A stretch of 64,000 nt of DNA from Clostridiales bacterium (lineage in GTDB: Bacteria > Bacillota > Clostridia > Christensenellales > Aristaeellaceae): NCBI GenBank assembly GCA_015056055.1, contig SVHC01000010.1, positions 4,385-68,384 of the forward strand, in the 5' to 3' direction. Made by a program: the position numbers and the translations under genes. The notes under the pieces are model-generated. The model did no database searches. It saw only the letters and a program-made list of their open reading frames with translations, and had not been told where the DNA came from. Position 1 is the first letter of the stretch. The number at the start of each line of letters is the position of its first letter. Below, piece by piece: positions 5,951 through 38,060 of the stretch.

Positions 5951-5953
5951 AGG

Positions 5954-6647: not shown

Positions 6648-6700
6648 TGCGGTATGGGTAAAGTTTGCATAGCACAGAAGTGCGATTTTATGGAGGAAAG

Positions 6701-7477: not shown

Positions 7478-7493
7478 TATAAGAATCAATAGA

Positions 7494-7532: not shown

Positions 7533-7582
7533 GAAACGACAAGAATAGCGGATGGGCGCAAGAATCCGATATTCATCAGGAA

Positions 7583-17399: not shown

Positions 17400-20240
17400 A
17401 TGGCAAACAAGTTTAAGAGAAGCTTCGCAATGGTTCTGGCACTGTGTATGTTGGTACTCGCATCTCCCGTGCATGCTCTGGCCGAAGAGAGCGTTTACCC
17501 GGATGACATTAACGCAGACCTGACTGTTGACCAAACCAATGGTACGATTGAAATCGTTTTCACCCCCGTTGATGGCGCAGAGGGCGGAGATCTGGAATGG
17601 GAATCCGATCTGACCCTGGGCGAAAATATTGAAACCGAACTGAGCGATCTGAGCGTTACTGAGGAAAAAACCGAAGATGGCGACACGATCGTTACCGAAA
17701 GCGCTACCATCGTTACCGAAGGTACGCTGGAGAACGGTGCAGACAGCAATGGTGAGGAAGTTCTTGAAGAGATCACTGACACCGAAGCTGAAGATGCGCA
17801 GCAGAATGGTGAAATAACCATCAATGGCGAGGAAACTCATGTTGAAATCACCACTACCGAAGCCGACGGTACCGTTACTGAAACGGATGTAACCGACGGT
17901 TACGAGAAGATCGAGTGGACCGGCGACGGCATCGAGAACATCGAAGACGTTATCGAAGGTCTTGAAGATCTTGAAGGTCTTGAAAACATTGAGCTTCCCT
18001 CTGTGGAAATCGAACTCAATCCCGGTGAAACTACCGAGCCCGTCACTGAAAAGAGTGAAGTGCCGGTAACCGGTACTGTTGGCGACGAAAAGGAAGGCGA
18101 AGACGACACTGAGTACAACTACACCGATATCACTATCGAAGTAGATCGTACCGTGAGTGCTGAGGCTTCCGATCTGGTAGTAACGCCTCCCAGCGCTACT
18201 AACAACTATGATTCTCCCGTTGATCCTACCACGGATACGGACAAGAACTGGGATACCAGCTCCAAGACTAAGGAAGATCCTCAGCGCAACGGCTTGGAAA
18301 AGCCGGCGCCCGGTTTGGTTGACCTTGAGGATGTTCTCATGTATGAACGCTGGCAGGAAGGCGACGATATTCCTGAAGGATTCCACGTTGGCGACATCAA
18401 GGAAGATGCAAAGGGTAATTACATTATCGCTGATGAGCCTCAGGAGATTCCCGAAGGATATGACTTCTTCCACTCCGGCATGGGTGAATACACCGACGCC
18501 GCAGCTCCTGTGTTTAAGTACATCGTTTACCAGCGCGACGAGAGTGGCGAAATCATTTACGGCGAAGACGGTAAGCCTCTTGTTGATGAGGAAAAATCTT
18601 ACCTGATGAATGGTTCTAATGGCAAAGCTCCCGAAAGCGGTATGGACTATCAGCCCGGTCAGCTCGGTTTGACGAATATCGTTTGCGAGCGCTATACGGA
18701 AGAAGATCTGAAAAACGACCTGATTCCGGAAGGCAAGAATGTCGGTGATATCAAGTATGATGAAAACGGCAAGCCTGTGGTTGATGAGGAACAGACAGAG
18801 CTTTTCTACGCCTACTGCGCCGACTTCCTGGTAGAAACAGACGCAGACGCTATGCACTGGTACAAGATGGAAAACCTGGAAGACAGTGGTCACTACACTG
18901 AGGAAGATGCTCAGAAGCTCCGTGCCATCGTTATGAATGGCTACTGGGGTGATGCAGAAGTAGGTACTGTGGAGCAGATTGTTGCCAATCTGACCGAGTA
19001 TGTCCAGGACATGCCTGAAGCCACTGATGAAGAGAAGGCAGAAATGCTGGACCTTCTGCTTGGTATGAAGGAGCATGAAGCTCTGGCTGTTACCCAGGCT
19101 GCAATTTGGGCTTATTCTGTTAACCGCACTAACACTGCCTATATGGATGGCAAGCTTCCTGCTGGTGTAGATAATGTTGAAGTTATCGGCGCCCAGAGTG
19201 CAATCAAGTGTTATGCGTACGATGCGAAGAAGAACAAGACTTCTTGGTATACTGAGTACAAGGCTGCTGTTGATCAGATGAAGGACGGCGGACTGCCCCT
19301 GAATGGAGCGTACGTTAATCTTTCTGAAGAAGTAATGGCAGAACGAGTAGCGGAAGCTATTGAAAGCGATGCCCGCATGGCTCTGATGTTTGAGTACCTG
19401 ATGAGCCTGGAAGGTATTCCGGACACCGATGAGGACGTAACCACGGTTATCAACGAGAACAATTTCATCGAAGATGACTCCCTGTCTCTGGTAATTCATG
19501 ACCGCGTTGAGGATCATGAAGACAACAAGGACGACAACCACGACAATGACGTTTACGACACCGACCTGAAGTTCAGCCTGGCTTTTGTTCCCGGCGAGAA
19601 AGATGAACTGCTGGTTTATCTGTATGGTATCGGCGATGAACCCATCGTACGCCGCCTCAGCGGTACGGGTAACGATGGTATCGAGGATATCACCACGGAC
19701 ACCGACGCAAACGGCAATACTGTTTACGTATTCAAAGATCTGCAGCTGAGCGAGAACTCCAATACGAAGTTCGACCTCCGTCTGGACGGCGTTCATCACC
19801 TGAATCAGGGCGTTTACCTCTACACTGCTCAGGGCGGTCGCCTTGCCTCCCAGACCTTTGTTGGTATGGCAAGCGGTTCGCAGGATATCGACATCACTGC
19901 GAGCATGACCATTAGCTTCAATGTAGATGAGAACAACCATGTTGTTGCAGAACGTTATTGGCACAACGAATCCGACCCCGAAACCACTCCGCCCACTAAG
20001 GATGAACCCCCGGTTATCTCCGAACTGCCTCCGAGTGAGGACGAGGAAGAGCCCACGCCCCCGGTTCGTTATCGTCTGTCCCGTAACGTAGGTCAGCTGG
20101 AAACCATCATTGATGAGGAAGTTCCGCTGGCTGAAGTTCCTGAGACCGGTGATATCTCCATGGTATGGTTTGCCATGGTACTGGTAGCTGGCATGGGACT
20201 TTGCATGCTGAAACTTGCTGAGAAAAAGTGCAAGGCATAA
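17400..20240 (+). CDS. sortase-anchored surface adhesin with a thioester (TQxA) domain
   Basis: Signal peptide MANKFKRSFAMVLALCMLVLASPVHALA and a very acidic D/E/T-rich N-terminal region. Thioester Cys context FYAYCADF and Gln motif LAVTQAAIWAYS. C-terminal sorting signal EVPETGD, then hydrophobic ISMVWFAMVLVAGMGLCML, then KLAEKKCKA. Confidence 0.85.
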   Translation: MANKFKRSFAMVLALCMLVLASPVHALAEESVYPDDINADLTVDQTNGTIEIVFTPVDGAEGGDLEWESDLTLGENIETELSDLSVTEEKTEDGDTIVTESATIVTEGTLENGADSNGEEVLEEITDTEAEDAQQNGEITINGEETHVEITTTEADGTVTETDVTDGYEKIEWTGDGIENIEDVIEGLEDLEGLENIELPSVEIELNPGETTEPVTEKSEVPVTGTVGDEKEGEDDTEYNYTDITIEVDRTVSAEASDLVVTPPSATNNYDSPVDPTTDTDKNWDTSSKTKEDPQRNGLEKPAPGLVDLEDVLMYERWQEGDDIPEGFHVGDIKEDAKGNYIIADEPQEIPEGYDFFHSGMGEYTDAAAPVFKYIVYQRDESGEIIYGEDGKPLVDEEKSYLMNGSNGKAPESGMDYQPGQLGLTNIVCERYTEEDLKNDLIPEGKNVGDIKYDENGKPVVDEEQTELFYAYCADFLVETDADAMHWYKMENLEDSGHYTEEDAQKLRAIVMNGYWGDAEVGTVEQIVANLTEYVQDMPEATDEEKAEMLDLLLGMKEHEALAVTQAAIWAYSVNRTNTAYMDGKLPAGVDNVEVIGAQSAIKCYAYDAKKNKTSWYTEYKAAVDQMKDGGLPLNGAYVNLSEEVMAERVAEAIESDARMALMFEYLMSLEGIPDTDEDVTTVINENNFIEDDSLSLVIHDRVEDHEDNKDDNHDNDVYDTDLKFSLAFVPGEKDELLVYLYGIGDEPIVRRLSGTGNDGIEDITTDTDANGNTVYVFKDLQLSENSNTKFDLRLDGVHHLNQGVYLYTAQGGRLASQTFVGMASGSQDIDITASMTISFNVDENNHVVAERYWHNESDPETTPPTKDEPPVISELPPSEDEEEPTPPVRYRLSRNVGQLETIIDEEVPLAEVPETGDISMVWFAMVLVAGMGLCMLKLAEKKCKA

Positions 20241-20358: not shown

Positions 20359-20424
20359 GCAAAAGAATGTTATACTATATAACAAGAGAAAGCGCCGGAA
20401 GGCGGAAAAAAGGAGTTGTCAAAA

Positions 20425-21369
20425 TTGAAAAAATTGCTGGCTGCCTTTCTGGCAGTGTGGATGGGCGTAACTGGTTTGGGCTGTGCGCTGTGTGAGGATG
20501 CGTATATTGATTCTGATTGGAGCAGCTATGAGGGGGAGATGATCTCTCAGTCTCGTGCTGCGGTACCGCTGCTGTTGGAAGCTACCGCTCCGGGTGTGTT
20601 GGTGGAAGAAAACGGGAAGGCACTGATCGACTATTCCAATACCGACGATGGATATGTGATGGTGCTGTATAAAGAGGGAACCAGCAAAAAGCTCAAGGTG
20701 CAGATCAAGGGACCTTCCACGACCTATACATATACCATTTATCCCGGTGAGTGGGCAGTGCTGCCGCTGACAGACGGAAACGGAAAGTATCAGGTCAAGG
20801 TGTTCAAGAATGTGTCCGGAAACTCCTATTCCAATGTGCTGGCTGCAAAGACAACGGTGGAACTTACCGATGAATTCGCACCGTTCCTCAGACCCAATCA
20901 GTATGTCAATTACAGCGCTTCCAGCCGTGCTGTGGAACTGGCGATGAATCTGACGCAGGGCATTTACCAGCCGCTGGGCAAAGTAGAAGCGATTTATAAT
21001 TACGTGGTAACGTATCTTTCCTACGATAAGGAAAAGGCCAAGAATGTCAAGAGCGGTTATCTGCCGGTGCTGGATGAGATACTGGAATCCAAGAAGGGCA
21101 TCTGCTTTGACTACGCGGCGCTGATGACGGGTATGCTGCGCAGCCAGGGTGTTCCCTGCAAGATGGTGTTTGGCTATGCGGGAAGTGCATACCATGCCTG
21201 GATTAGCGTGTGGAGCGAGGATACCGGCTGGGTGGATGGCGTAATTTTCTTTGACGGTACCACTTGGCAGCGTCTGGATCCTACTTTTGCTTCCTCCGGT
21301 AATCAGAGCGAATCGATTATGGAGTATATCGGCAACGGTAAGAACTATAAGGAAAAGTATTTCTATTAA
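20425..21369 (+). CDS. secreted transglutaminase-like (Cys-His-Asp core) protein
   Basis: Signal-like KKLLAAFLAVWMGVTGLGCALC. Transglutaminase core KKGICFDYAALMTGMLRSQGVPCKMVFGYAG..YHAWISVW....WQRLDPT. The likely start is TTG 20425, 9 nt after AGGAG; the track start 20416 abuts the RBS. Confidence 0.75.
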   Translation: MKKLLAAFLAVWMGVTGLGCALCEDAYIDSDWSSYEGEMISQSRAAVPLLLEATAPGVLVEENGKALIDYSNTDDGYVMVLYKEGTSKKLKVQIKGPSTTYTYTIYPGEWAVLPLTDGNGKYQVKVFKNVSGNSYSNVLAAKTTVELTDEFAPFLRPNQYVNYSASSRAVELAMNLTQGIYQPLGKVEAIYNYVVTYLSYDKEKAKNVKSGYLPVLDEILESKKGICFDYAALMTGMLRSQGVPCKMVFGYAGSAYHAWISVWSEDTGWVDGVIFFDGTTWQRLDPTFASSGNQSESIMEYIGNGKNYKEKYFY

Positions 21370-21425
21370 GCTGTTCAAAGTACCGAAGAGGATGGACCAT
21401 CCGCGGATGGTTTGTGGATGAAGAT

Positions 21426-22472
21426 ATGAAAGTGCTTGAATTGACAAATTTGGAAAAAGCTGATCTTTTTAAACAGTTGGCGCTGCTGATGCATTCCGGC
21501 GTGACTGCGGGAGATGGACTCAGTCTGTTGGCTGAAGGGGAACCCAACGAAAAAATCCGCGAGATGCTTGTGAAGATGACGGAGAGTGTAGATGCCGGTG
21601 CGTATCTCTCGCAGGCTTTTGAGGAAACCGGAAGTTTTCCTGCCTATGTGACGGGTCTTTTGCAGATGGGAGAGCAGGTGGGACGAAGCGAGGAAACGCT
21701 AACTGCTCTTTCCGACTATTACGAGCAGAAGGAGCGGATGGAGCGGCAGCTGGTCAGTTCTCTGACCTATCCCGCGATTTTGCTGCTTTTGATGGCTGTT
21801 GTGATCATCATTCTGCTCAGCCAGGTGTTGCCGGTGTTCAACGATATTTATGCTTCCTTAGGAGGAAAGCTTACCGGCGTTGCTGGTGGATTGCTGCTGG
21901 CAGGCCAACTTCTGGATAAGGCGATTCCTGTGCTGTGTGGACTGCTGGTGGTAGTTCTGGGCTTTTTTGCGGTGTTCTCTCTGCATAAGGAGTGGAGAAA
22001 GAAGATTCTGGGATTCTTCTCGGCACGCTGGGGAGATAAGGGTATTTTCCGCAAGATGAATAATGCCCGCTTCGCGCAGGCGCTGTCGATGGGATACACC
22101 AGCGGTATGCCGCTGGAGGATGCGGCAGATCTGGCTGCTCTGCTACTCAAAGACATTCCGCCGGTTCAGGAAAGATGCAAAAAATGCAGCGAAATGCTGC
22201 AGCAGGGCGAGGATCTGGCTGTGGCGTTGGAGGCGGCGGAGCTGATGCCTCCGTCTACCTGCAGAATGCTGACTCTGGGTCTGCGCAGCGGAACGGGCGA
22301 CAGCGTGATGGAAGATATCTCCCGCAGGATGCAGGAGGACGCGCATAATGCTTTGGAGAGTATTGTGGCTCGGGTGGAGCCGGCGTTGGTGCTGGTGACC
22401 TCCGTACTGGTGGGCGTGATTCTTCTGTCGGTGATGCTGCCGCTGATGAATATTATGACAGCGATCGGGTGA
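21426..22472 (+). CDS. type II secretion / type IV pilus platform protein (GspF/PilC family)
   Basis: Two T2SSF-like halves (LFKQLALLMHSGVTAGDGLSLL... and FAQALSMGYTSGMPLEDAADL...), each followed by TM segments. The start is ambiguous (GTG 21414 or ATG 21426). Confidence 0.75.
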   Translation: MKVLELTNLEKADLFKQLALLMHSGVTAGDGLSLLAEGEPNEKIREMLVKMTESVDAGAYLSQAFEETGSFPAYVTGLLQMGEQVGRSEETLTALSDYYEQKERMERQLVSSLTYPAILLLLMAVVIIILLSQVLPVFNDIYASLGGKLTGVAGGLLLAGQLLDKAIPVLCGLLVVVLGFFAVFSLHKEWRKKILGFFSARWGDKGIFRKMNNARFAQALSMGYTSGMPLEDAADLAALLLKDIPPVQERCKKCSEMLQQGEDLAVALEAAELMPPSTCRMLTLGLRSGTGDSVMEDISRRMQEDAHNALESIVARVEPALVLVTSVLVGVILLSVMLPLMNIMTAIG

Positions 22473-22476
22473 GAAC

Positions 22477-22791
22477 GTGAAGAAAAAAAGAGGATTGCAG
22501 ACGATTCTTTCCTGCGTAGTTATGCCCGTGCTGGCAATTTTGGTGCTGGTATGCTTTTTAAGCGCGGTTTCCAATCTGACAAGCGGGCGGCAGAGCGAGG
22601 ATATGGACAAGCTGGAAGATGTGCTTCGCCGCGCAGCGGTAGCCTGCTATGCTGCGGAGGGGATCTACCCGCCGGATCTGGAATATCTGCAGGAGCATTA
22701 TGGTGTGCAGATTGACGAAAGGCGCTATGTGGTGGATTACGTGGCGATTGCGGATAATCTGATGCCGGATATCACGATTCTGGAAAAATAA
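22477..22791 (+). CDS. small bitopic pilin-like protein (no Glu+5)
   Basis: GTG start 4 nt after the GspF stop. MKKKRG-LQTILSCVVMPVLAILVLVCFL, then an ~70-aa soluble part. Confidence 0.55.
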   Translation: MKKKRGLQTILSCVVMPVLAILVLVCFLSAVSNLTSGRQSEDMDKLEDVLRRAAVACYAAEGIYPPDLEYLQEHYGVQIDERRYVVDYVAIADNLMPDITILEK

Positions 22792-22815
22792 GAATGGACA
22801 AGCAATGGTGACAGG

Positions 22816-23298
22816 ATGAAAAAGAAAAACCAATTGGGCAGCGTGCTGGTTTTGCTGGTGTTTGCGGTGTTCATGGTCTCGGTTTTAATGGTGCTGCTCA
22901 CCGGTGCGGATGTGGTAGAGAAGATCCATAGCCGCGATCAGGCCAGCTATGACCACAGAACGCTGGTACAATATATCACTACCCGGGTTCGTCAGGCCGA
23001 TCAGCGTGGCATGGTGGATGTGCGCAGCTTTGGCGACGGTGATGCATTGGTGCTTACGGAGGAAATAGACGGAGATTTGTATGAAACTCTGGTCTATTGT
23101 TCCGATGGGTATTTGAGGGAACTGTTTGTGGAAGCGGGTCTGGAAATGGATGCGGAATTTGGCGAGGAGATTCTGCCGATTCAGCGCGTTTGTTTTCAGG
23201 ATGAAAATACCTATATCCGCGTACAGTTGACGCTGACAGAGGGAGAGGAAGAGGAAATGATTCTTTCTCTTCGCAGCGAGAGGGGGACAATGCGATGA
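22816..23298 (+). CDS. small bitopic membrane protein (160 aa), pilus/pseudopilus accessory candidate
   Basis: MKKKNQLG-SVLVLLVFAVFMVSVLMVLL N-terminal anchor. I recall similar clostridial proteins being binned as a DUF family, but this is unverified. Confidence 0.55.
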   Translation: MKKKNQLGSVLVLLVFAVFMVSVLMVLLTGADVVEKIHSRDQASYDHRTLVQYITTRVRQADQRGMVDVRSFGDGDALVLTEEIDGDLYETLVYCSDGYLRELFVEAGLEMDAEFGEEILPIQRVCFQDENTYIRVQLTLTEGEEEEMILSLRSERGTMR

Positions 23299-23693
23299 AG
23301 AGCAAAGCACCTCTTGCGCTGATGGAGCAGCTGGTGATGATTCTGGTGTTCGCACTGGCTGCGGCATTGTGTTTGCAGATTTTTGTGCTTTCGGGCAATC
23401 TTTCCGTGACAAGTGAAACCCGCGACCGGGCAGTAACGGCAGTTCAGAATACAGCAGAAACGCTAAAACTGTGCCGGGGCGATTTGGAAGAGGTTCAGAA
23501 ACTGCTGGGTGGAGAGAAAACCGAAGATTGCTGGCAGATGATTTTGACTGGAAAAGAAACGCTGTGTGTAACGGCAGAACGGATTGCAGACGAAGCTGAA
23601 GCACTGGGCGAGGCCAGAGTGTATGCAGTCAACGATAAAGGCAGCGTGGTTTTTGAAGTGAATGTATGCTGGCAGGAGGAATGGGATGGATAA
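23295..23693 (+). CDS. pseudopilin-like protein with non-canonical leader
   Basis: MKSKAP-LALMEQLVMILVFALAAALCL. LALME aligns with the pilin F-T-L-I-E motif and conserves the Glu, but the residue at -1 is Pro rather than Gly. The ATGA overlaps the upstream stop. Confidence 0.55.
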   Translation: MKSKAPLALMEQLVMILVFALAAALCLQIFVLSGNLSVTSETRDRAVTAVQNTAETLKLCRGDLEEVQKLLGGEKTEDCWQMILTGKETLCVTAERIADEAEALGEARVYAVNDKGSVVFEVNVCWQEEWDG

Positions 23694-24093
23694 GCAGCAG
23701 AAAAAGTTTCAGGCTCCCATGGTGGGAGGAAGCTCCTTGCTGGTGATTTTTGCCATTCTGTGTCTGACGGTTTTTGCTCTCCTGGGGTTTAGTACCGTGC
23801 AGGCAGACCGTAGGCTGGCAGATGCCAGTATTAAGGCCGTAGAAGGGTATTATAAGGCTGATAGCGAGGCAGAAAGGATTCTGGCCGCGATTCGCAGCGG
23901 CGAGGCTCCTGCAGGGGTACAGTGCGATGAAAACGTGTATCGTTACGCCTGTACCGTTTCCGACACTCAGAAGCTCTTGGTAGAGGCACGGGTTGAAAAC
24001 AGGGACGAATGGGAAATTCTGCGCTGGCAGACGGTTTCAACGGCAGAGTGGAATGAAGAAGAGTATATTACTGTGTGGGACGGCGAGAGTTAG
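23686..24093 (+). CDS. small bitopic membrane protein (135 aa), pilus accessory candidate
   Basis: MDKQQKKFQAPMVGG-SSLLVIFAILCLTVFALLGF. AGGAGGA RBS and an 8-nt overlap with the upstream gene. The track start 23662 is an extension. Confidence 0.55.
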   Translation: MDKQQKKFQAPMVGGSSLLVIFAILCLTVFALLGFSTVQADRRLADASIKAVEGYYKADSEAERILAAIRSGEAPAGVQCDENVYRYACTVSDTQKLLVEARVENRDEWEILRWQTVSTAEWNEEEYITVWDGES

Positions 24094-24124
24094 ACAGATT
24101 TGAGAAAAAAGGCAGGCATTGTAT

Positions 24125-25180
24125 ATGGCTGATTTGATGTATTATCTGCAGCAAGCGGTAGAGAAACACGCTTCGGATATTTTTATTGTGGCAGGTGCTC
24201 CGGTGAGCTTCAAGCTGGATGGAAAAGTATGCCATATAAGTGATCAGAAGGTTATGCCGGAGGAAACGCTGGAACTTATTACCGAGATTTACGGAAATGC
24301 CAAACGTTCCATGGACGCATTTCTTCGAAACGGTGATGATGACTTTTCCTTTGCTGTGCCGGGAATGGCGCGCTTCCGTGTAAATGCCTATCGTCAGAGA
24401 GGCTCACTGGCAGTAGTGGTACGCGTAGTGTCTTTCAATATCCCGGACTGGAAAAGCATCCATATACCGGAGAGGATTATGGATTTGGCAAATGCGGGTC
24501 ACGGTATGATTCTTATGACCGGCACTGCGGGCAGCGGAAAGTCTACCACACAGGCATGTATTATCGACCGTATTAACCAAACACGGGATTGCCACATTAT
24601 TACGCTGGAAGATCCTATTGAGTTTTTGCACCGCAACCAACGCAGCATTGTGAGTCAAAGAGAAATCGCGGTGGATACCGCTGACTATCTTTCTGCGCTG
24701 CGTGCCTGTCTGCGTCAGGCACCGGATGTGATTCTTCTGGGCGAAATGCGTGATCCAGAAACAATTCGTACCACCATTACAGCGGCGGAAACCGGTCATC
24801 TGATTATTGCGACGCTGCACACCAAAGGAGCTGTCAATGCCATTGATCGCATTATTGACAGTTTTCCGAGTGAGCATCAGGCGCAGATTCGCATGATGCT
24901 TTCTACGGTATTGCAGACTGTTGTTTCACAGCAAATGCTGCCTGACCAACATGGTGGAATGGTGCCCGCCTTTGAAGTGATGCATGTCAATAGTGCCATT
25001 CGCAGCCTGATTCGCGACAATAAGAGCCATCAGATTAATAATGTGATCGCTGCCGGCGGAAAAGAAGGCATGATCACCATGGATCAGGCTATTCTGGAAT
25101 TGTATAAAAATGGCGCGATTACAAAGGATACAGCCTTGGATTACGCTGATGCGCCGGATATGATGAGGCGTCAACTGTAA
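24125..25180 (+). CDS. pilT: PilT-family (retraction-type) hexameric ATPase
   Basis: Alignable along its length with Pseudomonas PilT as I remember it: ASDIFIVAGAPVSFKLDG, FSFAVPGMARFRVNAY, Walker A GTAGSGKST, ITLEDPIEF, ILLGEMRD, AAETGHLIIATLHT. About 350 aa, lacking the N-terminal extension of PilB/GspE. Confidence 0.85.
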   Translation: MADLMYYLQQAVEKHASDIFIVAGAPVSFKLDGKVCHISDQKVMPEETLELITEIYGNAKRSMDAFLRNGDDDFSFAVPGMARFRVNAYRQRGSLAVVVRVVSFNIPDWKSIHIPERIMDLANAGHGMILMTGTAGSGKSTTQACIIDRINQTRDCHIITLEDPIEFLHRNQRSIVSQREIAVDTADYLSALRACLRQAPDVILLGEMRDPETIRTTITAAETGHLIIATLHTKGAVNAIDRIIDSFPSEHQAQIRMMLSTVLQTVVSQQMLPDQHGGMVPAFEVMHVNSAIRSLIRDNKSHQINNVIAAGGKEGMITMDQAILELYKNGAITKDTALDYADAPDMMRRQL

Positions 25181-25555: not shown

Positions 25556-25613
25556 AACAAATGAAAGACTCGTATGCATAAGGCGCTTTGAGCGCTTTCT
25601 GGCATACGAGTCT
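25556..25613 (-). terminator. nested hairpin terminator candidate for the c-di-GMP operon
   Basis: Perfect 12-bp outer stem AGACTCGTATGC/GCATACGAGTCT (25566-25577 / 25602-25613) enclosing an inner GCGCT...AGCGC stem. On the minus strand it is followed by TTCATTTGTT. Confidence 0.45.
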
Positions 25614-25701
25614 GTTCGATTTGCTTGTGGTAGTCACACTGTGTACTGAACAGTGTGCACGATGTGGTGAGAGATTGGGAGATAAGCTCCCTTGTGTGAT
25701 T

Positions 25702-28254
25702 TTAGATGCCGACCTCTGCAGGTGCAGGGGGAGTAGATTTGGTCAGCGAGGGGATACGCAGTTCGATTTTATTGTTTTCCACCAATTCGGCAAAGATTTC
25801 AATAAGGTTGGGGTCGAACTGTTTTCCGGCCTCAGAGCGCAGAATGGACAGAGCCTCATGTACGGGCGTAGCAGATTTGTAATTGCGGATAGAGGTAATA
25901 GCATCGAAGGAATCAGCAATACAGAGGATACGACCGGTGATGGGAATGTTGGTCTGCGCCAAGCGACGAGGATAACCGCGGCCGTCGTAACGCTCGTGGT
26001 GAGAGAGAACGGCGGGAATAACGTAATCCAGTGAGGGAAGATGCCGGATGATGTTGACCGCATTTTCAACATGGCTCTTCATCACTTCGTACTCTTCTGC
26101 AGTAAGCTTGCCGGGCTTATTGAGGATTTCTTCACGGATGCCGATTTTACCGATGTCGTGCAACAAACCGGCTTCGCGGATAATCTCTACCAAATCGGAG
26201 GACATGCCTGCAGCCTTGGCAAGTTCAGCGGCGTAATAGGCCACGTTCTGGGAGTGCTGGAACGTATAATGGTCTTTGGCATCGACCGCTGCGGTAAGAG
26301 CGTAGATGGTACTGGCATGTTCATCGTAACCGCTTTTGTAAAGCGTGTTGCTGGGTTCTCTGCGGTGAATATCGGCGGAGTACATCTGCACGGCATTTTT
26401 ACCGGTGCGCTTGACGGTGTAAACGGTGGTATCGGCATTGCGATAGAGTTCCTTGGCGGAAGAAGCCATGTAGGGAGCAGCGCAGATACCGATGCTGGCC
26501 GTCATGGTACCGGCAGGTTTACTGCCGGCGAAGGAAGACGTGATATTGCTGATTTGTTCAGCTACGTTATCGGCCAGACATTTGGCGGAGTAGATATCAT
26601 AGCCGGGGAGAATCAGGGCAAATTCATCGCCTCCGATACGGGCAGCATAGCCGTTTTCGTTGACGGCAGATGCCAGAATGGCGGCAATACTACGGAGTAC
26701 GGCGTCACCTTCATTGGTACCGTAAAGCTGATTGTACTGCTTGAAATCGTCGATATTGATCAGGCACAGGGAAAGAGCGGTGTCCTTGCACTTTTCAAAT
26801 TCACGATCAAGAATATCGTAGAAGAATTTGAAGTTGAGCAGGCCGGTCATATCGTCCCTCTGCGCTTCTTCCACGGCTCGTTCGTAATTGTAGGCGTTCT
26901 GAACGGCACTGGCACATACGGTAGCAAGAGACTGCAGGAAACGAAGGGTATCGGGATGCTGCGAGAACTTTCCGTGACGATCGGGCAGAATCATGAAGCC
27001 TATCAGGTCACCTTCGTGATTCATAGGGATGAAGCAATCAAGCTGTTGGTTGATCAGAAGGGCTTTTTCCTTTTCCCAGAGGCTGCGATAGAGAGTTCTG
27101 CGGGAAAAGTCCTGGGATGTTACATAGCCATGCTTGTCCTTCAGATATTTGACCAACGGATGGGTGGCATCAAAGGAGAAACTCTTTTCTTCCAGAGGAT
27201 TGAGAGTGTGTTCAATGCGATATGTGCCGCCGGAATCACGGACAAGCACAAAGAGACGGTCTATATCGAAGACTTCCTGTGCTGTGTTGGTCATGCTCTG
27301 CAGGATTTCACTGACACTCATCATGTGAGATAGGTTTTCAGAAAAATGATTGAGAGCGTTGTTGCGCTTCTGATCCTTGCGAGAGAAAATCGCATCGCAC
27401 AGGGAGTTGATGGCCAGATACAGCAGGCCAATCAACAAAAAGAGGAAAACAGCAATGATCATCAGTGTGCTGGTGTAGCCCAAACCAACGTTCTGCATGA
27501 GAAAACGCTGGAGAACCAGAGCCAGATCTGAGAAAATCGCCAGACCGATGACGGCGGAGATGATTATATAATTGGACTTGGAAAGAAGGATGGTCATGCG
27601 GAAAAGCCGTTTCCGGTAAAGTGCGTAGAAAAGGAAAATTGCGTTGCAAACACCGGAGAGCATATCCATAGGAAGACCTATGAACATGGGCAGGGTAGTG
27701 AGCAGATGACCCATGACCAGAACAGCCAGACCACCCATTACAGGCGTCAATTGGCGCAGGGCGATGTGATTTCCGCGGCAATGACGCCAAGCCAGAATAC
27801 ACATTTGCGCCAAAGTAGGCACAATTAAAGCAAAGAGGAAATAAATGTGCCAATTGTAGTGATAGAGGAAGGTGGGAGTATCGCCGGTTCGAATGACTTC
27901 CGGCAGGGGAATAAAGAAATTGGTGAGGCAATTGAATACAAACAGTGCCAGGTAGAAGAACATCCAGAATTTGCGGCCATGGCTATTGGTTTCATCCAGA
28001 AAAGCCAGAACAAACTGATAATAACCATAGGCAACCATCATCATACCCAGAAGGGAAACATGGTGCCAGAAGTTGACATTTGGCCACAATTCAATTCGCA
28101 TGCCCAGCGAGCCGCCGTTCCACAAAAGCATGATGCCCAGAAGCAGTGAGAAGGAACGAAGAGCTTTTTCCTTGGGCTTGGAAACCAAGAAGGTCAGCAG
28201 AAGAAAGAGGTAGCAGAAGATGGAGAAGACGGCAATCCAACTATATCCATTCAT
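25702..28254 (-). CDS. polytopic membrane sensor with GAF-like, GGDEF and HD-GYP domains (c-di-GMP synthesis/degradation)
   Basis: About 300 aa of TM helices, then RIGGDEFALILPG (intact GGDEF), then HD-GYP motifs LLHDIGKIGI and HHERYDGRGYP. Confidence 0.85.
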   Translation of the reverse strand: MNGYSWIAVFSIFCYLFLLLTFLVSKPKEKALRSFSLLLGIMLLWNGGSLGMRIELWPNVNFWHHVSLLGMMMVAYGYYQFVLAFLDETNSHGRKFWMFFYLALFVFNCLTNFFIPLPEVIRTGDTPTFLYHYNWHIYFLFALIVPTLAQMCILAWRHCRGNHIALRQLTPVMGGLAVLVMGHLLTTLPMFIGLPMDMLSGVCNAIFLFYALYRKRLFRMTILLSKSNYIIISAVIGLAIFSDLALVLQRFLMQNVGLGYTSTLMIIAVFLFLLIGLLYLAINSLCDAIFSRKDQKRNNALNHFSENLSHMMSVSEILQSMTNTAQEVFDIDRLFVLVRDSGGTYRIEHTLNPLEEKSFSFDATHPLVKYLKDKHGYVTSQDFSRRTLYRSLWEKEKALLINQQLDCFIPMNHEGDLIGFMILPDRHGKFSQHPDTLRFLQSLATVCASAVQNAYNYERAVEEAQRDDMTGLLNFKFFYDILDREFEKCKDTALSLCLINIDDFKQYNQLYGTNEGDAVLRSIAAILASAVNENGYAARIGGDEFALILPGYDIYSAKCLADNVAEQISNITSSFAGSKPAGTMTASIGICAAPYMASSAKELYRNADTTVYTVKRTGKNAVQMYSADIHRREPSNTLYKSGYDEHASTIYALTAAVDAKDHYTFQHSQNVAYYAAELAKAAGMSSDLVEIIREAGLLHDIGKIGIREEILNKPGKLTAEEYEVMKSHVENAVNIIRHLPSLDYVIPAVLSHHERYDGRGYPRRLAQTNIPITGRILCIADSFDAITSIRNYKSATPVHEALSILRSEAGKQFDPNLIEIFAELVENNKIELRIPSLTKSTPPAPAEVGI

Positions 28255-29881
28255 TCAGCAGTTCCCCCTTTCCGACACTGTCCATCATGTGACAATTGAG
28301 CAAATCGTTGATTTCGCAGCTTTCGGCATTCATGGTACGAATTTTGGATCCGTATTTACGTTCGTAGAGTTCGAAGGTTCCGCACTTGAGCAGTGTGATC
28401 TTCAGCGGATCGATTCCCAGAATCTTCTTAAGATCCTCATAATCCTGATCCAGATAGCGGAAATAGATTCCCAGCTGATCTTGCAGCAGTCTGATACTGA
28501 TGGCGCTGTTGATCAGGTTGCTGCGCTGCAGTTCTACATACATGTGCAGATACGGTCTGTTCTGCTCGGTATATTCCTTTTTGGCTGTCCAAGAGGCAAT
28601 GGGAAGCCTGGACAGCTGAATCGCTTGTGTGATGGATTTTTCTGTGATGCGGGTAAATCCGGCGATATCAATAATCTGCGGAACGCGATCCACATACTGG
28701 AAGCGGGGAATGGAATTGCCCTCGCTCTCGCTTCCGATACCGGTACAGCGGAATACATCGCCTACGCGATAGCGGGCGAAGGCGCCGCCCTTAAATACGG
28801 TCAGTACGAGTTCATAAATACCGCCGGGGAGAACTTCATTCCAGAGAATGGTATGGGGCTGATAGTTGGGGTCGGCCAAGCTTCTGTCCAACTCATCTTC
28901 GGGAATAAATTCATAGAAGCAGGCGTCAGGGAAGAAATAGACACCTTCGCGGCTCCAGGTTTCGCAACCGATACATGTGGGTTCGGTGCCGGCAAAAATC
29001 TCCATGGGGGTAATGCCCCACATCTTTTCAAGATCGGCTTTGTAGCATCGATTGTCTGTGCCGGCGTACATGAAACATTTGAGATGGAAAAGGTCCTTGG
29101 GCAGCAGATCACGATTTTCTCTGCGGCATTTTTTCTTGGCCATAAGATAACGCAAGATCATTTTGGGGGAGGTGCCCAACAGCTTGTCTTTGAGACTGTG
29201 TCCGCCGGAACTCATGCTTGAAATGCTCTGACTGACATAATAAAGGACACTGCCCAGGCCAAAGAAGTATTCAAGACCTTTCTTCATGCCTAGTTTGAAA
29301 CCCTGCTTGTTGCGCTCTCTAAAGCTCATTTTTACCGCTTCTTTAACCGGCGGGAAAAACTCAATATCGATTTCATCTTCCAAAAGCAGGGGCAGAAGAC
29401 CGGTAACATAGGGCATCGGTGCCAGCGCATAAAGCATGTGGTCGGTTACACTGATGTCGAAATCACCCTTTTGACGACTGGTAGCCAGAATCAAGCAGCT
29501 GATGACATTGTGTTTGAACGTATCCAACATCGCCTTGGTATAAGGGGCTGTCTTGATGGGGTGGACGCCACCTTCCCATGTAGTCTGCACCCAAAGAACG
29601 GGATCGGCAGGCAGTGAGGAGGTCTGCTTGGAAAGCAACATGGGCGCGTAATCCTCATAAGAGGTCAGCGGCACCATTTCGCGGAATTCATTGATGGTAT
29701 GGGGGTATTTGCCTTTGAGAATGCTCTGACCGATTCCGCTGTTGGACCACAGTTCGATTTGTTCAAGCAGCAGTCGGTTCTGAATGCTCATGAATTCTTC
29801 GGAGGACAGCGTCAAAAAACCGCAGTATTCTTCCCAGATTTCTGCTTTGGTATATTCGTGAAGCTTTTCCTGGAATCTCAT
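28241..29881 (-). CDS. GH3-family-like (acyl-acid amido synthetase / adenylate-forming) protein
   Basis: Motif 3-like ARYRVGDVFRCTG (compare plant GH3 YRLGDVV). Motif 2-like IFAGTEPTCIGCE (compare YGSSE). The position of the P-loop-like SSGTT motif is degenerate (VQTTWEGGVHPIK). Size is 546 aa. The assignment rests on recollection of family motifs. Confidence 0.5.
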   Translation of the reverse strand: MRFQEKLHEYTKAEIWEEYCGFLTLSSEEFMSIQNRLLLEQIELWSNSGIGQSILKGKYPHTINEFREMVPLTSYEDYAPMLLSKQTSSLPADPVLWVQTTWEGGVHPIKTAPYTKAMLDTFKHNVISCLILATSRQKGDFDISVTDHMLYALAPMPYVTGLLPLLLEDEIDIEFFPPVKEAVKMSFRERNKQGFKLGMKKGLEYFFGLGSVLYYVSQSISSMSSGGHSLKDKLLGTSPKMILRYLMAKKKCRRENRDLLPKDLFHLKCFMYAGTDNRCYKADLEKMWGITPMEIFAGTEPTCIGCETWSREGVYFFPDACFYEFIPEDELDRSLADPNYQPHTILWNEVLPGGIYELVLTVFKGGAFARYRVGDVFRCTGIGSESEGNSIPRFQYVDRVPQIIDIAGFTRITEKSITQAIQLSRLPIASWTAKKEYTEQNRPYLHMYVELQRSNLINSAISIRLLQDQLGIYFRYLDQDYEDLKKILGIDPLKITLLKCGTFELYERKYGSKIRTMNAESCEINDLLNCHMMDSVGKGELLNEWI

Positions 29882-30471
29882 GATTCAACCTCCTTCTCGC
29901 CTTGATGACGAAGGTTTTGACATGCCAGACGGAGGCTGGCTTTTGTAGGAATCAGGAAGGGTGTTTCCTGTTGATAGCGTTTGTAATCGCAGAAGGTTCG
30001 GGGAAAGGTGATGCGATCCTGGAAGCAGGCATAAGCAAGGTCCATGAGGGAAAAGAACATTCCGCGGAGCAGCAAGCCATAAAAAGGAGCAGCAGCAAGT
30101 CCTAAAAAGAAAAATAGCAGGAAAAAAAACAGAATACCCGGATGGCGGCAGAGTGCGTAGACGCCTTTATCATACACACTGCGTCCATCCGTTTGCTTGG
30201 CGTAGGTTTCTTCGAAAGGAAGCGCGAAGAAAAGGCTGTAGATCAGCGCCAAAATTGATATAAACGCAAAAAAGATGAAAATCCAGTCTACGATACTATC
30301 AAATGCATTGATCCGGCAGGCAGCGTACAAATCCAACCCTGCTGCGCCGGCGAGCAACGCAGTACCCAAAGCGAAAAAGAATCGGGGAAAGCTGCGTTGC
30401 CAGGAAAAACTGTTAATATCATAGAGGAAGTAGAGGAGAAAAGCTGCAAGCCCCAAAGCCAGTGAAATCAT
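29878..30471 (-). CDS. ICMT/PEMT-like integral membrane methyltransferase
   Basis: Five or six TM segments and GVYALCRHPGILFFFLLFF (compare the RHPxY motif of isoprenylcysteine / phospholipid methyltransferases). GGAGGA RBS before ATG 30471. The track ORF up to 30705 overlaps the upstream gene and is an extension. Confidence 0.45.
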   Translation of the reverse strand: MISLALGLAAFLLYFLYDINSFSWQRSFPRFFFALGTALLAGAAGLDLYAACRINAFDSIVDWIFIFFAFISILALIYSLFFALPFEETYAKQTDGRSVYDKGVYALCRHPGILFFFLLFFFLGLAAAPFYGLLLRGMFFSLMDLAYACFQDRITFPRTFCDYKRYQQETPFLIPTKASLRLACQNLRHQGEKEVES

Positions 30472-30496
30472 ACGTCCTCCTGCAGGTGCAAGTGAA

Positions 30497-32824
30497 TTAC
30501 TTTTTGTTTTCCGCCATAGATTCCATGCTGGGATCATAGAAAATGAACTGAGCACGGCCTTGTTCCTTGGCCACATAGGCAGCCGTATCGGCATGATCCA
30601 ACAAATCTTCGTAGGTATCGCCATCATCGGGATAAACGGCGGCACCGATGCTGCCGGACAAGGGATAATCGATGGTATCTGTGCGGTAGGGGGTCTGCAG
30701 CACATTGCAGAGTTCTTCCAGACGCTTTGTCAAATCAGCACGTTCCAGACCGCTGACGAAGACTACGAATTCGTCGCCTGCATAGCGGGCAACCACATCG
30801 ATGTGACGGAAGGTACCCAGAAGACGCTTGGCAATGAAGCACAGCACGTCGTCGCCGACCATATGTCCCAGAGTATCGTTGACCTGCTTAAAGTGATCCA
30901 GGTCAAAGAAGATGATGGCGCTGCCGGTTTGTGCACCCTTTTTGAGGGCGCTGCTGACGAATTGCTCAAAGTAAGTACGGTTGTAAAGACCTGTCAGCGG
31001 GTCGCGATTGGCTTTTTCCATCCAACGGTTGACCTCATTTTTCCAACCGGCCATGTTTACCAACGTACCGGAAATTATGTCTTCACCGCCGGAAGCGATA
31101 TGTTCGCAATGCATATGAACTTCCATCCACTCGTAGCGGGACTCGTTGGTATAAAAGCGCAGAGTATTCTCAGCCCAGCCTTCGTTTTTGCAGCAACGGT
31201 CCATAAGATTACGGAAATCCTGGCGGTCATTTTCATGAATCAGATCGGAATGAGCAAAGAGTGCGGAGGCTTCGGAAATAACCAGCTGACCGTAAAGAAG
31301 GGGAGAAAAAATATCAGAGAAGACTACGCGATCCTGGCTGACCAGGAAAGTGAACATGATAATGTTGCTTCCGGTGGGATGGGGAGCAATGTCGTTGGTT
31401 TGAATGGTGGGGGTATCGTTGGTTTCCACATATTTCAATTGCCCGTTTTCAAAGGCAGTCTTCTGGAATTCATCGACGGGCATGGGACGGAAGTAGTAAA
31501 AACCCTGAATCATATCGCAACCGGATTGACGCAGATACTGAACCTGGGAGGCAATATCGATTCCTTCGGCAACGGTATGAATCTGCAGCTGAGAGGTGAT
31601 TTTTAGAATCGCTTCTACGATATAGCGGTTGGCGCGGCTATTGTTTTCGCCGATAAAGAAGCTGCGATCCAATTTAAGTGTGTCAATGCTCAGTTCACGA
31701 AGGAGCTGCAGGGGAATAGCACTCTCGCCAAAGTGATCCAGAGAACATTTGAAACCGTAAGAATGAATTTCATCGACCAGGGCGCGCAGCCTTTGCGGCT
31801 TTTCAAAAAGAATGGGTTCGCTCAGTTCAAATTCCAGATATTCCGGTGCGACGCGATACTTCTGAGCAATACGGTTATAGGGCTCCAGAAAGTGGTCATG
31901 TTCCAGTGTTTCCAGAGACAGATTGACGGAAATCGGGCAGGGGCTCATGCCCAACTGCTTCCACTGTGCCATTTTGCTGCAAACTACTTCGAAAAGATAT
32001 TGATCAAAGCGGTGAATAAGTCTGTATTCCTCCAGAAGCGGAACAAACATTTCAGGAGTAAGCAGACCGCGCTGCGGATGACGCCAGCGAACCAACGCTT
32101 CTGCGCCTACGATACGACCGTCGCCCAGGCGAACCTTGGGCTGCATATAGACAAGAAAATCACCGTTAGCCAAGGAACGATCCATCTGTTCAATCAGTTC
32201 CCAACGGTGGATGGCTTTTTCATCGGTAGGGTTGTTGTGATAAAAACGGAAACGGGGCGCATTTTTTTCCATGTCCAACATCTGCAGCGCTTTTTCCTGC
32301 ATATCGCTGAAAGGCTCGGAAGTGGTAGAGGGAAGATAAGCGCCGAAAATCAGATCCATATGATAGGGAATTTTACGCTGAATATTAAATTGATTGATGC
32401 TTTCATAAATTCGCAGCAGGCGGGCACGGATAGCATCTTCCTGACGATTTTTAATCAGAAAACACAATGTACCGCCACTCAGTCGAGCCGCGGCTTCAGA
32501 GGAACTCAGCGAAGTACGCAGAATACGGGCGATATAGAACAGAACCTGGTCGCTTTTTGCGCTGCCAAAGGTGTGGACAATCTGCCGCCAGTTTTTCAGC
32601 TCCATGACTACAACGGCATGGTGAGGTGTGTTGCTGCTGAAATATTGCAAAGCAACACGCCTTAATCCCTCACTATTCAGAAGACCGGTTACAGAATCGG
32701 AAAGGGCGCGGGATTGCAACCGCTTGATGCGGCGGATATATATCAGCATAACAATGACTGTCAGCACAAACAGGACTGACAGGGCGAAAACCCACTGAGA
32801 AGGAGTAAAAAGAGGGCTATTCAC
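30497..32824 (-). CDS. membrane-anchored degenerate-GGDEF / EAL / PAS-like / GGDEF(AGDEF) protein
   Basis: N-terminal TM WVFALSVLFVLTVIVMLIYI. The first cyclase-like domain has RLSGGTLCFLI in place of GGDEF. EAL domain: GAEALVRW..., LDHFGES. C-terminal RYAGDEFVVFV. Confidence 0.8.
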   Translation of the reverse strand: MNSPLFTPSQWVFALSVLFVLTVIVMLIYIRRIKRLQSRALSDSVTGLLNSEGLRRVALQYFSSNTPHHAVVVMELKNWRQIVHTFGSAKSDQVLFYIARILRTSLSSSEAAARLSGGTLCFLIKNRQEDAIRARLLRIYESINQFNIQRKIPYHMDLIFGAYLPSTTSEPFSDMQEKALQMLDMEKNAPRFRFYHNNPTDEKAIHRWELIEQMDRSLANGDFLVYMQPKVRLGDGRIVGAEALVRWRHPQRGLLTPEMFVPLLEEYRLIHRFDQYLFEVVCSKMAQWKQLGMSPCPISVNLSLETLEHDHFLEPYNRIAQKYRVAPEYLEFELSEPILFEKPQRLRALVDEIHSYGFKCSLDHFGESAIPLQLLRELSIDTLKLDRSFFIGENNSRANRYIVEAILKITSQLQIHTVAEGIDIASQVQYLRQSGCDMIQGFYYFRPMPVDEFQKTAFENGQLKYVETNDTPTIQTNDIAPHPTGSNIIMFTFLVSQDRVVFSDIFSPLLYGQLVISEASALFAHSDLIHENDRQDFRNLMDRCCKNEGWAENTLRFYTNESRYEWMEVHMHCEHIASGGEDIISGTLVNMAGWKNEVNRWMEKANRDPLTGLYNRTYFEQFVSSALKKGAQTGSAIIFFDLDHFKQVNDTLGHMVGDDVLCFIAKRLLGTFRHIDVVARYAGDEFVVFVSGLERADLTKRLEELCNVLQTPYRTDTIDYPLSGSIGAAVYPDDGDTYEDLLDHADTAAYVAKEQGRAQFIFYDPSMESMAENKK

Positions 32825-33084
32825 TGTATTTTTTCCTCACATATTGTAGGCGTTTATGGCATGAAAAGCAGCAAATTTATGAATCTAAATTTGAAGATAC
32901 TAAATTTATTTTATTATATCACGAATTTATTGCTACTTCAACATGAATGGACGATATTTTGTTCAATAATTTTGATGTTTTCTGTTGTGTTTTTAAGGGA
33001 CAGAATGTATAATGCATATAGTGTTTCAAAAGATTTTAGGTTGTGATTGGAACCTTAATTAAAAAACAATTGGGGAGGAGTTCG

Positions 33085-34185
33085 ATGAGAAAGATTTTGA
33101 AGGTTGTTTTGCTGCTGACGCTGGTAGTCGGTTTGGTCTTCGGTGGCAAAAGTTTGTTGGATGATGTAAGCAGCGGACGGGATAATGACATGGCCAGAGA
33201 ATTGGCGCGAGGCGGCAGGACAACGGCAGCGCCTACTGAAGCTCCCACTGAAGCTCCTACGGCAGCGCCCACCGAAGCTCCTACGGCAGCTCCCACTGAA
33301 GCTCCTACGGCAGCGCCCACCGAAGCCCCTACGGCAGCGCCCACCGAAGCTCCTACGGCAGCGCCCACTGAAGCTCCTACGGCAGCGCCCACCGAAGCCC
33401 CTACGGCTGCGCCCACCGAAGCTCCCACGGCAGCGCCCACTGAAGCTCCTACGGCTGCGCCCACCGAAGCTCCCACGGCAGCGCCCACTGAAGCTCCTAC
33501 GCCTGTGCCTACGGTTAAACCCACCGAGGTTCCCACACCTGCGGCAACGCAGAAGACAAGAGCAGATCTTACGCATAGTGACCCGATAGTCATGGAACTT
33601 CTTGCTATGGATCTGGATGTGCTTAGGGAATACAATCCGGAAGTTGTTGGTTGGGTATTCATTCCCGATACGGCGATTGACTATCCCATGGTACAGGGTG
33701 CTGATAACGACTTCTATTTGAATCACACATGGATGAAGGATGAAAACAACGCAGGTGCGATTTTCATGGAAGCGGAAAATTCCCTGGATATGAGCGATTT
33801 CAATACCATTATTTACGGTCACAACATGAGAAATGGAGCCATGTTCAGTGATCTGAACAAGTATCAGAGTCGCAGCTATATGGCCGATCATCCTTATGCA
33901 TATGTGCTTACTGACAATGGCGTCTATCGCTATGATCTGTATGCTACTTACAAGGCAGGCGTGCGTTCCATCACCTATGCCATGAAGATTCAGACTGAAA
34001 AGAAGAGGATGGAACTGATCAATTTCATTGACAACTATTCGCAGGTCACTATGGATATAGCCCCCGGTGTCGACGATCATATCCTGACGCTGTCGACTTG
34101 TTCCGGTGTAGGTCAGCCCAATCGCCGCGTGGTTATTGGAATTTTCAATGCGGAAGGATCCTGTCTAATTAATCCCTTGGAATAA
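33085..34185 (+). CDS. srtB: class B sortase with N-terminal TM anchor and long APTEAPTA repeat stalk
   Basis: MRKILKVVLLLTLVVGLVFGG anchor, then a 92-aa repeat stalk. Catalytic domain: PDTAIDYPMVQGADNDFYLNH, IIYGHNMRNGAMFSDL, LTLSTCS...RRVV. GGGGAGGAG RBS. Confidence 0.8.
   Translation: MRKILKVVLLLTLVVGLVFGGKSLLDDVSSGRDNDMARELARGGRTTAAPTEAPTEAPTAAPTEAPTAAPTEAPTAAPTEAPTAAPTEAPTAAPTEAPTAAPTEAPTAAPTEAPTAAPTEAPTAAPTEAPTAAPTEAPTPVPTVKPTEVPTPAATQKTRADLTHSDPIVMELLAMDLDVLREYNPEVVGWVFIPDTAIDYPMVQGADNDFYLNHTWMKDENNAGAIFMEAENSLDMSDFNTIIYGHNMRNGAMFSDLNKYQSRSYMADHPYAYVLTDNGVYRYDLYATYKAGVRSITYAMKIQTEKKRMELINFIDNYSQVTMDIAPGVDDHILTLSTCSGVGQPNRRVVIGIFNAEGSCLINPLE
33226..33501 (+). repeat. 11.5 tandem copies of a 24-bp unit (GCAGCGCCCACCGAAGCTCCTACG-like) encoding (AAPTEAPT)n
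   Basis: Read directly from the sequence. The copies differ only at a few synonymous positions. Confidence 0.9.
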
Positions 34186-37986: not shown

Positions 37987-38060
37987 TGGCAGGGGCAGTA
38001 AGACTCGAACTCACAACAAAGGTTTTGGAGACCCACGTGTTACCATTACACCATGCCCCT
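37987..38060 (-). tRNA. trnW: tRNA-Trp (anticodon CCA), second copy
   Basis: Identical to copy 1 through position 47. The T arm differs by compensated changes (GTGAG-TTCGAGT-CTTAC versus GAGGG-TTCGAGT-CCTTC). Acceptor and CCA end are identical. Confidence 0.9.

Follow-up and report, generated by a model that had tools for sequence, protein, structure and literature searches.

A GH3-like enzyme and a putative membrane methyltransferase share a conserved gene module with a seven-transmembrane GAF sensor linked to c-di-GMP

Why are a GH3-like enzyme and a methyltransferase-like membrane protein encoded together with proteins of cyclic diguanylate (c-di-GMP) turnover? In Clostridia c-di-GMP controls adhesion, pili, motility and biofilm formation, and to our knowledge the input signals are unknown for almost all clostridial GGDEF, EAL and HD-GYP sensors. 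The question is raised here by a Clostridiales bacterium (GTDB family Aristaeellaceae; GenBank assembly GCA_015056055.1, contig SVHC01000010.1, positions 4,385 to 68,384), of which the whole stretch of 64,000 nucleotides that was analysed is called the window. Open reading frame (ORF) calls confirm four co-oriented genes, A-B-C-D, on its minus strand (25702-32824). A preliminary description of this DNA, made from its sequence, had taken as the key feature of the locus that two c-di-GMP turnover proteins, A and D, bracket the GH3-like enzyme C and the membrane protein B. Our comparison of related genomes leads to a different answer, in which the conserved unit is B-C-D and not a bracket of two c-di-GMP genes.

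Relatives of C were collected in a scan of one genome per GTDB species, which yielded 257, and the best 80 of these 257 loci were examined; unless stated otherwise, counts of loci below refer to these 80. GH3 identity across them is 49-84%, and they are drawn from Oscillospiraceae, Lachnospiraceae, Hungatella, Anaerovoracaceae, Peptococcaceae and Izemoplasmatales/Mycoplasmatota, the closest GTDB species being ruminant-gut Oscillospiraceae. B lies directly 5' of C in all 76 loci with room for it, and a D orthologue lies directly 3' of C in 63 of the 64 loci with room on that side, with start and stop codons that mostly overlap or sit close to each other. Clustering of all neighbouring ORFs in the 80 loci revealed no other general partner, and nothing beyond B, C and D was present in more than 16 of them. 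Practically all of the related loci examined have the B-C-D order, which is more than chance would give. The preliminary description had left room for a linkage peculiar to this genome; its presence in 80 species loci shows that it is not. Cultured carriers of the module include Hungatella hathewayi DSM 13479 (NZ_CP102274.1, about 1.729-1.735 Mb), Murimonas intestini DSM 26524 and Anaerovorax odorimutans.

Proteins in which B and C are fused occur in several lineages (P0244, P0245 and P0262), and B and C therefore act together. In these fusions B forms the N-terminal and C the C-terminal part, an order that would place the GH3 domain on the cytosolic side of the membrane. A further candidate for a domain fusion, the 'long GH3' P0241 (727 aa), was rejected: a stretch of about 180 residues is repeated exactly within it, and an assembly or duplication artefact is more likely.

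The trio persists in more distant loci with 26-41% GH3 identity (L087, L088 and the contig of P0264), even with rearranged orientation. In L087 (41%) the order is a GGDEF gene, B, C, D and a gene for a DegV protein, and in L088 (26%) a B homologue on the opposite strand is accompanied by the GH3 gene and a convergent GGDEF-HD-GYP protein. A JGI contig (35%) carries response regulators, a PEMT-like gene, the GH3 gene and a hybrid kinase, and in L086 (38%) a REC-HD-GYP gene adjoins the GH3 gene. The DegV fatty-acid-binding (FakB-type) gene is found in 16 of the 80 loci, plus L087. It stands immediately 5' of B in 15 loci, where it usually overlaps the B start, and just 3' of D in L037 and L087. 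L082 (8001-11710) has a PEMT-like/GH3 fusion gene whose end overlaps by 4 nt with the next gene, which encodes a B12-binding radical-SAM protein. This neighbour is consistent with small-molecule tailoring, and L082 may represent another branch of the chemistry, with its own tailoring.

Gene A behaves differently. Its orthologues are confined to the 14 or so closest loci, with at least 75% GH3 identity, and A is therefore, judged by this distribution, a recent, lineage-specific addition ahead of B-C-D. Outside the A-bearing lineage an extra GGDEF gene lies near the module in about 7 of 66 loci, which by a rough estimate, not a computed one, is about background. The protein was expected to combine a degenerate GGDEF, an EAL, a PAS and an AGDEF-type domain. 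Three of these assignments hold: an N-terminal transmembrane helix is followed by a degenerate GGDEF domain (Pfam E = 4e-16; SGGTL in place of GGDEF), an EAL domain (E = 8e-60) with an intact EALVR motif, and a C-terminal GGDEF domain (E = 2e-61) with an AGDEF signature and an RHID I-site. The PAS domain is marginal (PAS_3, E = 0.015, below the Pfam threshold). From their motifs, the AGDEF-site domain of A is predicted to be a cyclase and its EAL domain a phosphodiesterase.

What kind of enzyme is C? It passes the Pfam models PF03321 (24.1 bits, cut-off 23.6) and PF23571 (47.7 bits) and scores below the cut-off for PF23572 (19.7 bits); the domains named are GH3_N, GH3_M and GH3_C. The profile of the C family matches 10 distinct plant GH3 sequences in the PDB (E = 1e-21 to 2e-15). 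The AlphaFold 2 (AF2) model of C is confident (mean predicted local distance difference test, pLDDT, 91.9; predicted template-modelling score 0.90), and Foldseek aligns it to JAR1, GH3.5, GH3.6 and GH3.12 with template-modelling scores of 0.62-0.67 and E of about 1e-18 to 1e-20. Because these four independent lines agree, we assign C to the GH3 family, with a predicted two-domain ANL/GH3 fold; the database record of the exact protein reads 'GH3 auxin-responsive promoter family protein'.

The nucleotide motifs of C differ in how well they are kept. Motif II (FAGTE) and motif III (GAFARYRVGD) are both canonical; among the top variants listed, motif II is AGTE or GGTE in at least 71 of the 80 loci and motif III is of the GGAFxRYRVGD type in at least 74. 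Motif I reads TTWEGGVHPIK. Set against the reference consensus S/T-S-G-T-S/T-x-G-x-x-K, it retains the Thr, Gly and Lys, whereas the Gly of TSG is replaced by Trp and two residues are inserted. This derived form is strictly conserved in the clade of C, and more distant relatives have TSGRSGxxxxK. The YRVGD motif and the degenerate first nucleotide motif noticed at the outset are thus both real, and the putative reaction of C would be the ATP-dependent formation of an amide from an acyl acid and an amino acid. The earlier remark that no function is established for bacterial GH3 proteins no longer holds: in 2025 the GH3-like enzyme OlsH of Singulisphaera acidiphila was described, which synthesises N-acyl-ornithine with free fatty acid and ATP as substrates (PMC12493201).

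A basic segment of C, SGGHSLKDKLLGTSPKMILRYLMAKKKCRRENRDLLPKD (residues about 222-262, positions about 29096-29218), has no counterpart in the alignment with an OlsH orthologue. Its first half falls in the least confident internal part of the AF2 model (residues 221-240, pLDDT 72-75). The segment could be a membrane- or partner-binding element.

B is a polytopic membrane protein with the motifs GVYALCRHPG and FQDRxTFPxTFxDYxxYxxxxPFLIP. The invariant positions in the alignment of its orthologues (Y105, R109, H110, P111, F156, Y163, Y166 and P175) cluster in GxYxxCRHPG and FxxYxxYxxxxPFLIP. It had been described as a PEMT/ICMT-like protein with an RHPG motif; the motif is present, and the family was reached by an indirect route. 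B of the window scores below every Pfam and NCBIfam threshold when searched alone (PEMT, E = 0.51, 11.2 bits, cut-off 25), so that its placement rests on profile links. The B family matches the N-terminal domain of the fusion protein P0262 (hhalign probability 99.3%, E = 5e-20), and this domain passes the PEMT model (33.7 bits, cut-off 25). Among 72 B orthologues, PEMT is matched by 18 (E of 0.01 or lower, best 2e-5), ICMT by 7 and DUF1295 by 4, and the family also matches a DUF1295-like neighbour in L088 (hhalign probability 99.2%). The B family profile gave no meaningful match to PDB sequences, and no match of the AF2 model of B (pLDDT 77) in a Foldseek search of the PDB reached E < 0.9.

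On these profile links we place B as a divergent protein of the PEMT/ICMT clan and, by extension, as a putative S-adenosylmethionine-dependent methyltransferase. Like members of ICMT and PEMT (PF04140, PF04191), it is polytopic, of about 190 aa, with an RHPxG/Y motif and a C-terminal aromatic/Pro motif, FxDYxxYxxxxPxLIP; unlike them, it scores under all model thresholds. We take the C-terminal motif of ICMT to contain an acidic EE pair, in place of which B has QD.

The third member of the module, D, was correctly described as a polytopic GAF/GGDEF/HD-GYP sensor. Pfam gives the order HisKA_7TM, GAF, GGDEF and HD-GYP (HD_5, PF13487, E = 8e-39), and the HD-GYP domain carries the residues LLHDIGK and HHERYDGRGYP. 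In the cluster of GGDEF-HD-GYP proteins made up of 64 D orthologues and one paralogue from L049, the HD motif is present in 60 of 65 and the GYP motif in all 65. The GGDEF domain has had another history. Nearly all D orthologues read GGKEF or SGKEF, in which the acidic third residue is replaced by Lys, and a few elsewhere read SGKVF, EGKxF or KGKVF. The nearest relatives of the window's D have SGDEF, NGDEF, NGDKF or GGKEF, and D of the window itself reads RIGGDEF, an intact signature without an I-site. Since GGKEF or SGKEF is combined with an intact HD-GYP in most orthologues, D is predicted to have been ancestrally an HD-GYP phosphodiesterase under the control of a signal, its GGDEF domain being non-catalytic, and not a dual turnover enzyme. 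Cyclase activity is doubtful for the family, and D of the window may have it, to judge by its signature. The third position of the motif evolves fast in the same sub-lineage that gained gene A.

Which part of D is tied to B and C? In L078 and L084 the gene directly after C encodes a 7TM-GAF-HisKA-HATPase-REC protein, in which kinase domains replace the GGDEF-HD-GYP output, and the 7TM region of these kinases matches that of D (E = 6e-31 and 1e-24, respectively). Because the 7TM-GAF part is kept while the output is swapped, the conserved partner of B-C is, by homology, the sensor and not the output domain. A comparison of the sensor region of D with the PDB returned no homologue. Of the initial idea that the product of the inner enzymes is related to the flanking c-di-GMP enzymes, the part that concerns D receives comparative support and the part that concerns A does not.

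How could the three proteins work together? We give about an even chance to a mechanism in which B and C synthesise or alter a lipid-like, methylated amide and the sensor of D reads the product, a proposal built on sequence relationships and on the analogy with OlsH. C, in the cytosol, would adenylate a carboxylic acid of hydrophobic character. This would most likely be a free fatty acid, handed over in some genomes by a DegV/FakB-like protein. C would then couple the acid to an amine or amino acid, giving an N-acyl amide in a reaction like that of OlsH, and B would methylate this amide at the membrane, either on a free carboxylate (as ICMT, giving a neutral methyl ester) or on an amine (as PEMT). 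The membrane-soluble product, or the balance between product and precursor, would be read by the 7TM-GAF sensor, and the HD-GYP domain of D would hydrolyse c-di-GMP; D of the window may also synthesise it through its canonical GGDEF domain. The level of c-di-GMP would finally act on effectors, such as the c-di-GMP-I riboswitch that lies 8 kb away, ahead of the gene of a sortase-anchored adhesin. The module would in this way probably tie a fatty-acid-derived small molecule to biofilm and adhesion signalling. The families, motif states, gene order, fusions, output swapping and DegV association are observations; the substrates, the methylation step, the relation of ligand to receptor and the direction of regulation we infer from them.

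Several points weigh against this proposal. Motif I of C is derived (TTWEGGxxPxK against TSGxxGxxK), and ATP-dependent adenylation by C is hence plausible but not assured. The substrate class is suggested by the analogy with OlsH, at an identity of only 18%, and by DegV genes that adjoin the module in about 20% of the loci. The AF2 model of B has low confidence over residues 85-110, around RHPG, so its fold is unconfirmed, and the PEMT/ICMT clan also includes NADPH-dependent reductases. In the OlsH-like reference locus described below (L089), the gene in the position of OlsG encodes a soluble class I Rossmann methyltransferase (Methyltransf_25/RrnaAD), a fold class unlike B; a homology of B to OlsG, which would follow if OlsG were an isoprenylcysteine-type methyltransferase, was rejected on this ground. 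Furthermore, the B-C fusions of L082 and L085 have no adjacent sensor, and co-transcription of enzyme and sensor does not in itself show that the sensor detects the product.

In another interpretation, which we consider possible though improbable, B-C would be a synthase of the autoinducer type and D its cognate membrane receptor. The product would be an N-acyl amino-acid methyl ester, neutral and able to permeate membranes, or else a related methylated fatty amide. In its chemistry it would be an analogue of acyl-homoserine lactones, and D would turn its concentration into c-di-GMP hydrolysis or, in the kinase variants, into a phosphorelay.

The same enzymes could instead serve the membrane itself. 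B and C would then supply a structural membrane component for stress adaptation, either an amino lipid, perhaps methylated, or an N-acyl amino acid, and D would be merely co-expressed or would sense the general state of the membrane, with no specific ligand. OlsH, OlsG and OlsI do produce a lipid that is a bulk constituent of the membrane (PMC12493201), B resembles the membrane enzymes of the PEMT family and DegV points to lipid metabolism. However, no OlsI-like O-acyltransferase is conserved beside B-C, and the near-obligate pairing with one 7TM-GAF sensor, despite the swaps of output, is hard to explain for a housekeeping pathway. We hold this explanation to be rather unlikely.

A further explanation reverses the flow: D would sense an incoming acid, a fatty or aryl acid derived from the host, the diet or other microbes, and B-C would inactivate it by conjugation and methylation. 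Co-transcribing a receptor with the enzymes that clear its signal is a sensible design, and DegV proteins bind exogenous fatty acids. There are also precedents, since plant GH3s take part in hormone homeostasis (PMC12493201), inactivating auxin, and RpfB of Xanthomonas turns over the diffusible signal factor (DSF), a fatty acid, beside the HD-GYP regulator RpfG. The sequence data do not separate synthesis from turnover, but a C fused to a membrane methyltransferase looks more biosynthetic, and clustering of the neighbouring ORFs found no uptake system conserved nearby; we think signal turnover unlikely. Modification of a protein by C and B, at a carboxylate such as that of the C-terminus or of a side chain in D or in a surface protein, is very improbable: ICMT-family enzymes do methylate protein carboxylates, including C-termini, the gene overlaps suggest matched levels of the three proteins, and adhesin, pilus and sortase genes lie nearby in the window, but no characterised GH3 enzyme acts on proteins, a pilus/sortase neighbourhood is present in at most 6 of the 80 loci, and the association with DegV and radical-SAM genes speaks for small molecules.

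In the window, the organization of the four genes supports a single predicted operon, and the junctions given in the preliminary description were all recovered. The stop codon of A and the ATG of B (30471) are separated by 25 nt with GGAGGA, B and C share an ATGA overlap (29878-29881), and C and D overlap by 14 nt (28241-28254), with AAGGGGG preceding the D start. The features of the operon and its surroundings are listed in the table. The promoter-like site falls within the AT-rich intergenic region 5' of gene A (32825-33085). The hairpin 3' of D has a minimum free energy of -52 kcal/mol over a 162-nt stretch (z = -7.25), and its long loop is the reason why a simple terminator scan overlooked it. 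No riboswitch was found within the operon of the window or upstream of the module in six diverse loci.

Table. Position and description of the operon and of other features in the window.
Feature	Position	Strand	Description
Promoter-like site, TTGAAG-17-TGnTATAAT	32941-32913	-	10/12 matches, top score in the region; consensus match alone
Gene A	30497-32824	-	775 aa; degenerate GGDEF, EAL, C-terminal GGDEF
Gene B	29878-30471	-	197 aa; putative PEMT/ICMT-clan membrane protein
Gene C	28241-29881	-	546 aa; GH3-like enzyme
Gene D	25702-28254	-	850 aa; 7TM-GAF-GGDEF-HD-GYP
Terminator-like hairpin, then U-rich tract CUUUCAUUUGUU	25556-25625	-	3' of D; from folding
c-di-GMP-I riboswitch (RF01051)	17275-17360	+	73.3 bits; directly 5' of the surface-protein gene
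Surface-protein gene	17400-20240	+	946-aa thioester-domain (TED) protein; signal peptide, C-terminal VPETG sorting signal, transmembrane helix, charged tail
Type IV pilus/type II secretion system (T2SS)-like cluster	20416-25180	+	T2SSF, DUF4860, several small pilin-like ORFs with N-terminal hydrophobic helices, T2SSE; convergent on the operon
Sortase gene	33043-34185	+	PT-rich linker; divergent from the operon promoter region
tRNA gene	5957-6027	-	
tRNA gene	37990-38060	-	

The operon is flanked by the divergent sortase gene upstream and by the convergent T2SSE gene downstream. The TED protein encoded behind the riboswitch looks like a c-di-GMP-controlled, sortase-anchored adhesin, and the adhesin, pilus and sortase genes could plausibly respond to the c-di-GMP pool controlled by A and D. 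In 6 close relatives a sortase homologue is found at the corresponding place, and in L082 and L087, too, the module is flanked by pilus-like genes. A general association of the module with type IV pilus, sortase or adhesin genes was rejected in view of their low frequency, and we regard these genes as local context. The G+C content of the window dips to about 0.44-0.47 near 4-8 kb and 34-38 kb.

A sensor phosphodiesterase tied to a two-enzyme small-molecule pathway across families of gut anaerobes offers an unusually direct handle on both a ligand and its receptor. If the proposed synthesis of a methylated amide is true, it would give the first function for GH3-like enzymes of Bacillota, one year after OlsH, the first characterised bacterial GH3; if the product is an autoinducer, it would reveal a new and widespread form of cell-cell or host-lipid signalling in gut Clostridia and Izemoplasmatales. 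N-acyl amino acids have also been reported from gut Clostridia (cited in PMC12493201), and the module is one candidate for their source. The papers that a literature search retrieved for GH3 combined with HD-GYP and GGDEF all concerned glycoside hydrolase family 3, and none was found that links GH3-like genes to HD-GYP or GGDEF genes. B-C-D is, as far as could be found, a widespread and previously undescribed module.

Among known systems, DSF/Rpf resembles the module in its working only: a fatty-acid signal is coupled to a c-di-GMP phosphodiesterase of the HD-GYP (RpfG) or EAL (RpfR, in Burkholderia) type, and an adenylate-forming enzyme, RpfB, acts on the signal. RpfF is a crotonase, the sensor is the RpfC kinase or a PAS domain in RpfR, and RpfB is a FadD-type coenzyme A ligase. 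The components of the module are not homologous to the synthase or sensor of DSF/Rpf, and RpfB is not a GH3 enzyme. DSF systems are proteobacterial; in the module, sensor and phosphodiesterase are one protein. RpfB-dependent turnover of DSF and the link of DSF signalling to HD-GYP are described in PMC9040794 and PMC4504480.

With the plant enzymes JAR1, GH3.5, GH3.6 and PBS3, C shares the fold and the three named Pfam GH3 domains, and its motif III, YRVGD, is almost plant-like. Plant GH3s form amide conjugates that are active or inactive as signals. C is bacterial, differs from them in its derived motif I, with 14-18% identity overall, and, unlike them, is partnered or fused with a membrane methyltransferase-like protein.

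The closest parallel in gene content is the OlsH system, in which a bacterial GH3-like enzyme is likewise encoded beside a methyltransferase. The neighbours of olsH encode the N-methyltransferase OlsG and the O-acyltransferase OlsI, and the three enzymes together yield trimethyl-ornithine lipid (PMC12493201). Using the published OlsH motif, we located an OlsH orthologue in the metagenome contig L089, which is called OlsH-like by three exact motif matches and gene order, not by accession. Its olsI-olsG-olsH-like operon (4514-7703, minus strand) encodes an alpha/beta-hydrolase, a class I methyltransferase and the GH3-like protein, and L089 is a useful reference locus for comparisons of bacterial GH3 enzymes. 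The C family aligns with this orthologue over about 450 columns (hhalign probability 99.3%) with 18% identity, and relatives of OlsH have been defined by at least 30% identity and 70% coverage (PMC12971839); at this identity C is classed as a homologue of OlsH and not as an orthologue. The two share a motif II of the AGTE/CSE type and an xGD motif III and differ in motif I, which is TTWEGGxxPxK in C and TSGTTQGATK in OlsH. Contrary to the olsH operon, no OlsI-type acyltransferase or alpha/beta-hydrolase is conserved near B-C-D in the 80 loci; the module is tied instead to a 7TM-GAF c-di-GMP or kinase sensor, and its hosts are monoderm anaerobes. The pairing of a GH3-like enzyme with a putative or known methyltransferase thus appears to recur with methyltransferases that are not homologous to each other, and what is new in B-C-D is the predicted obligate sensor partner.

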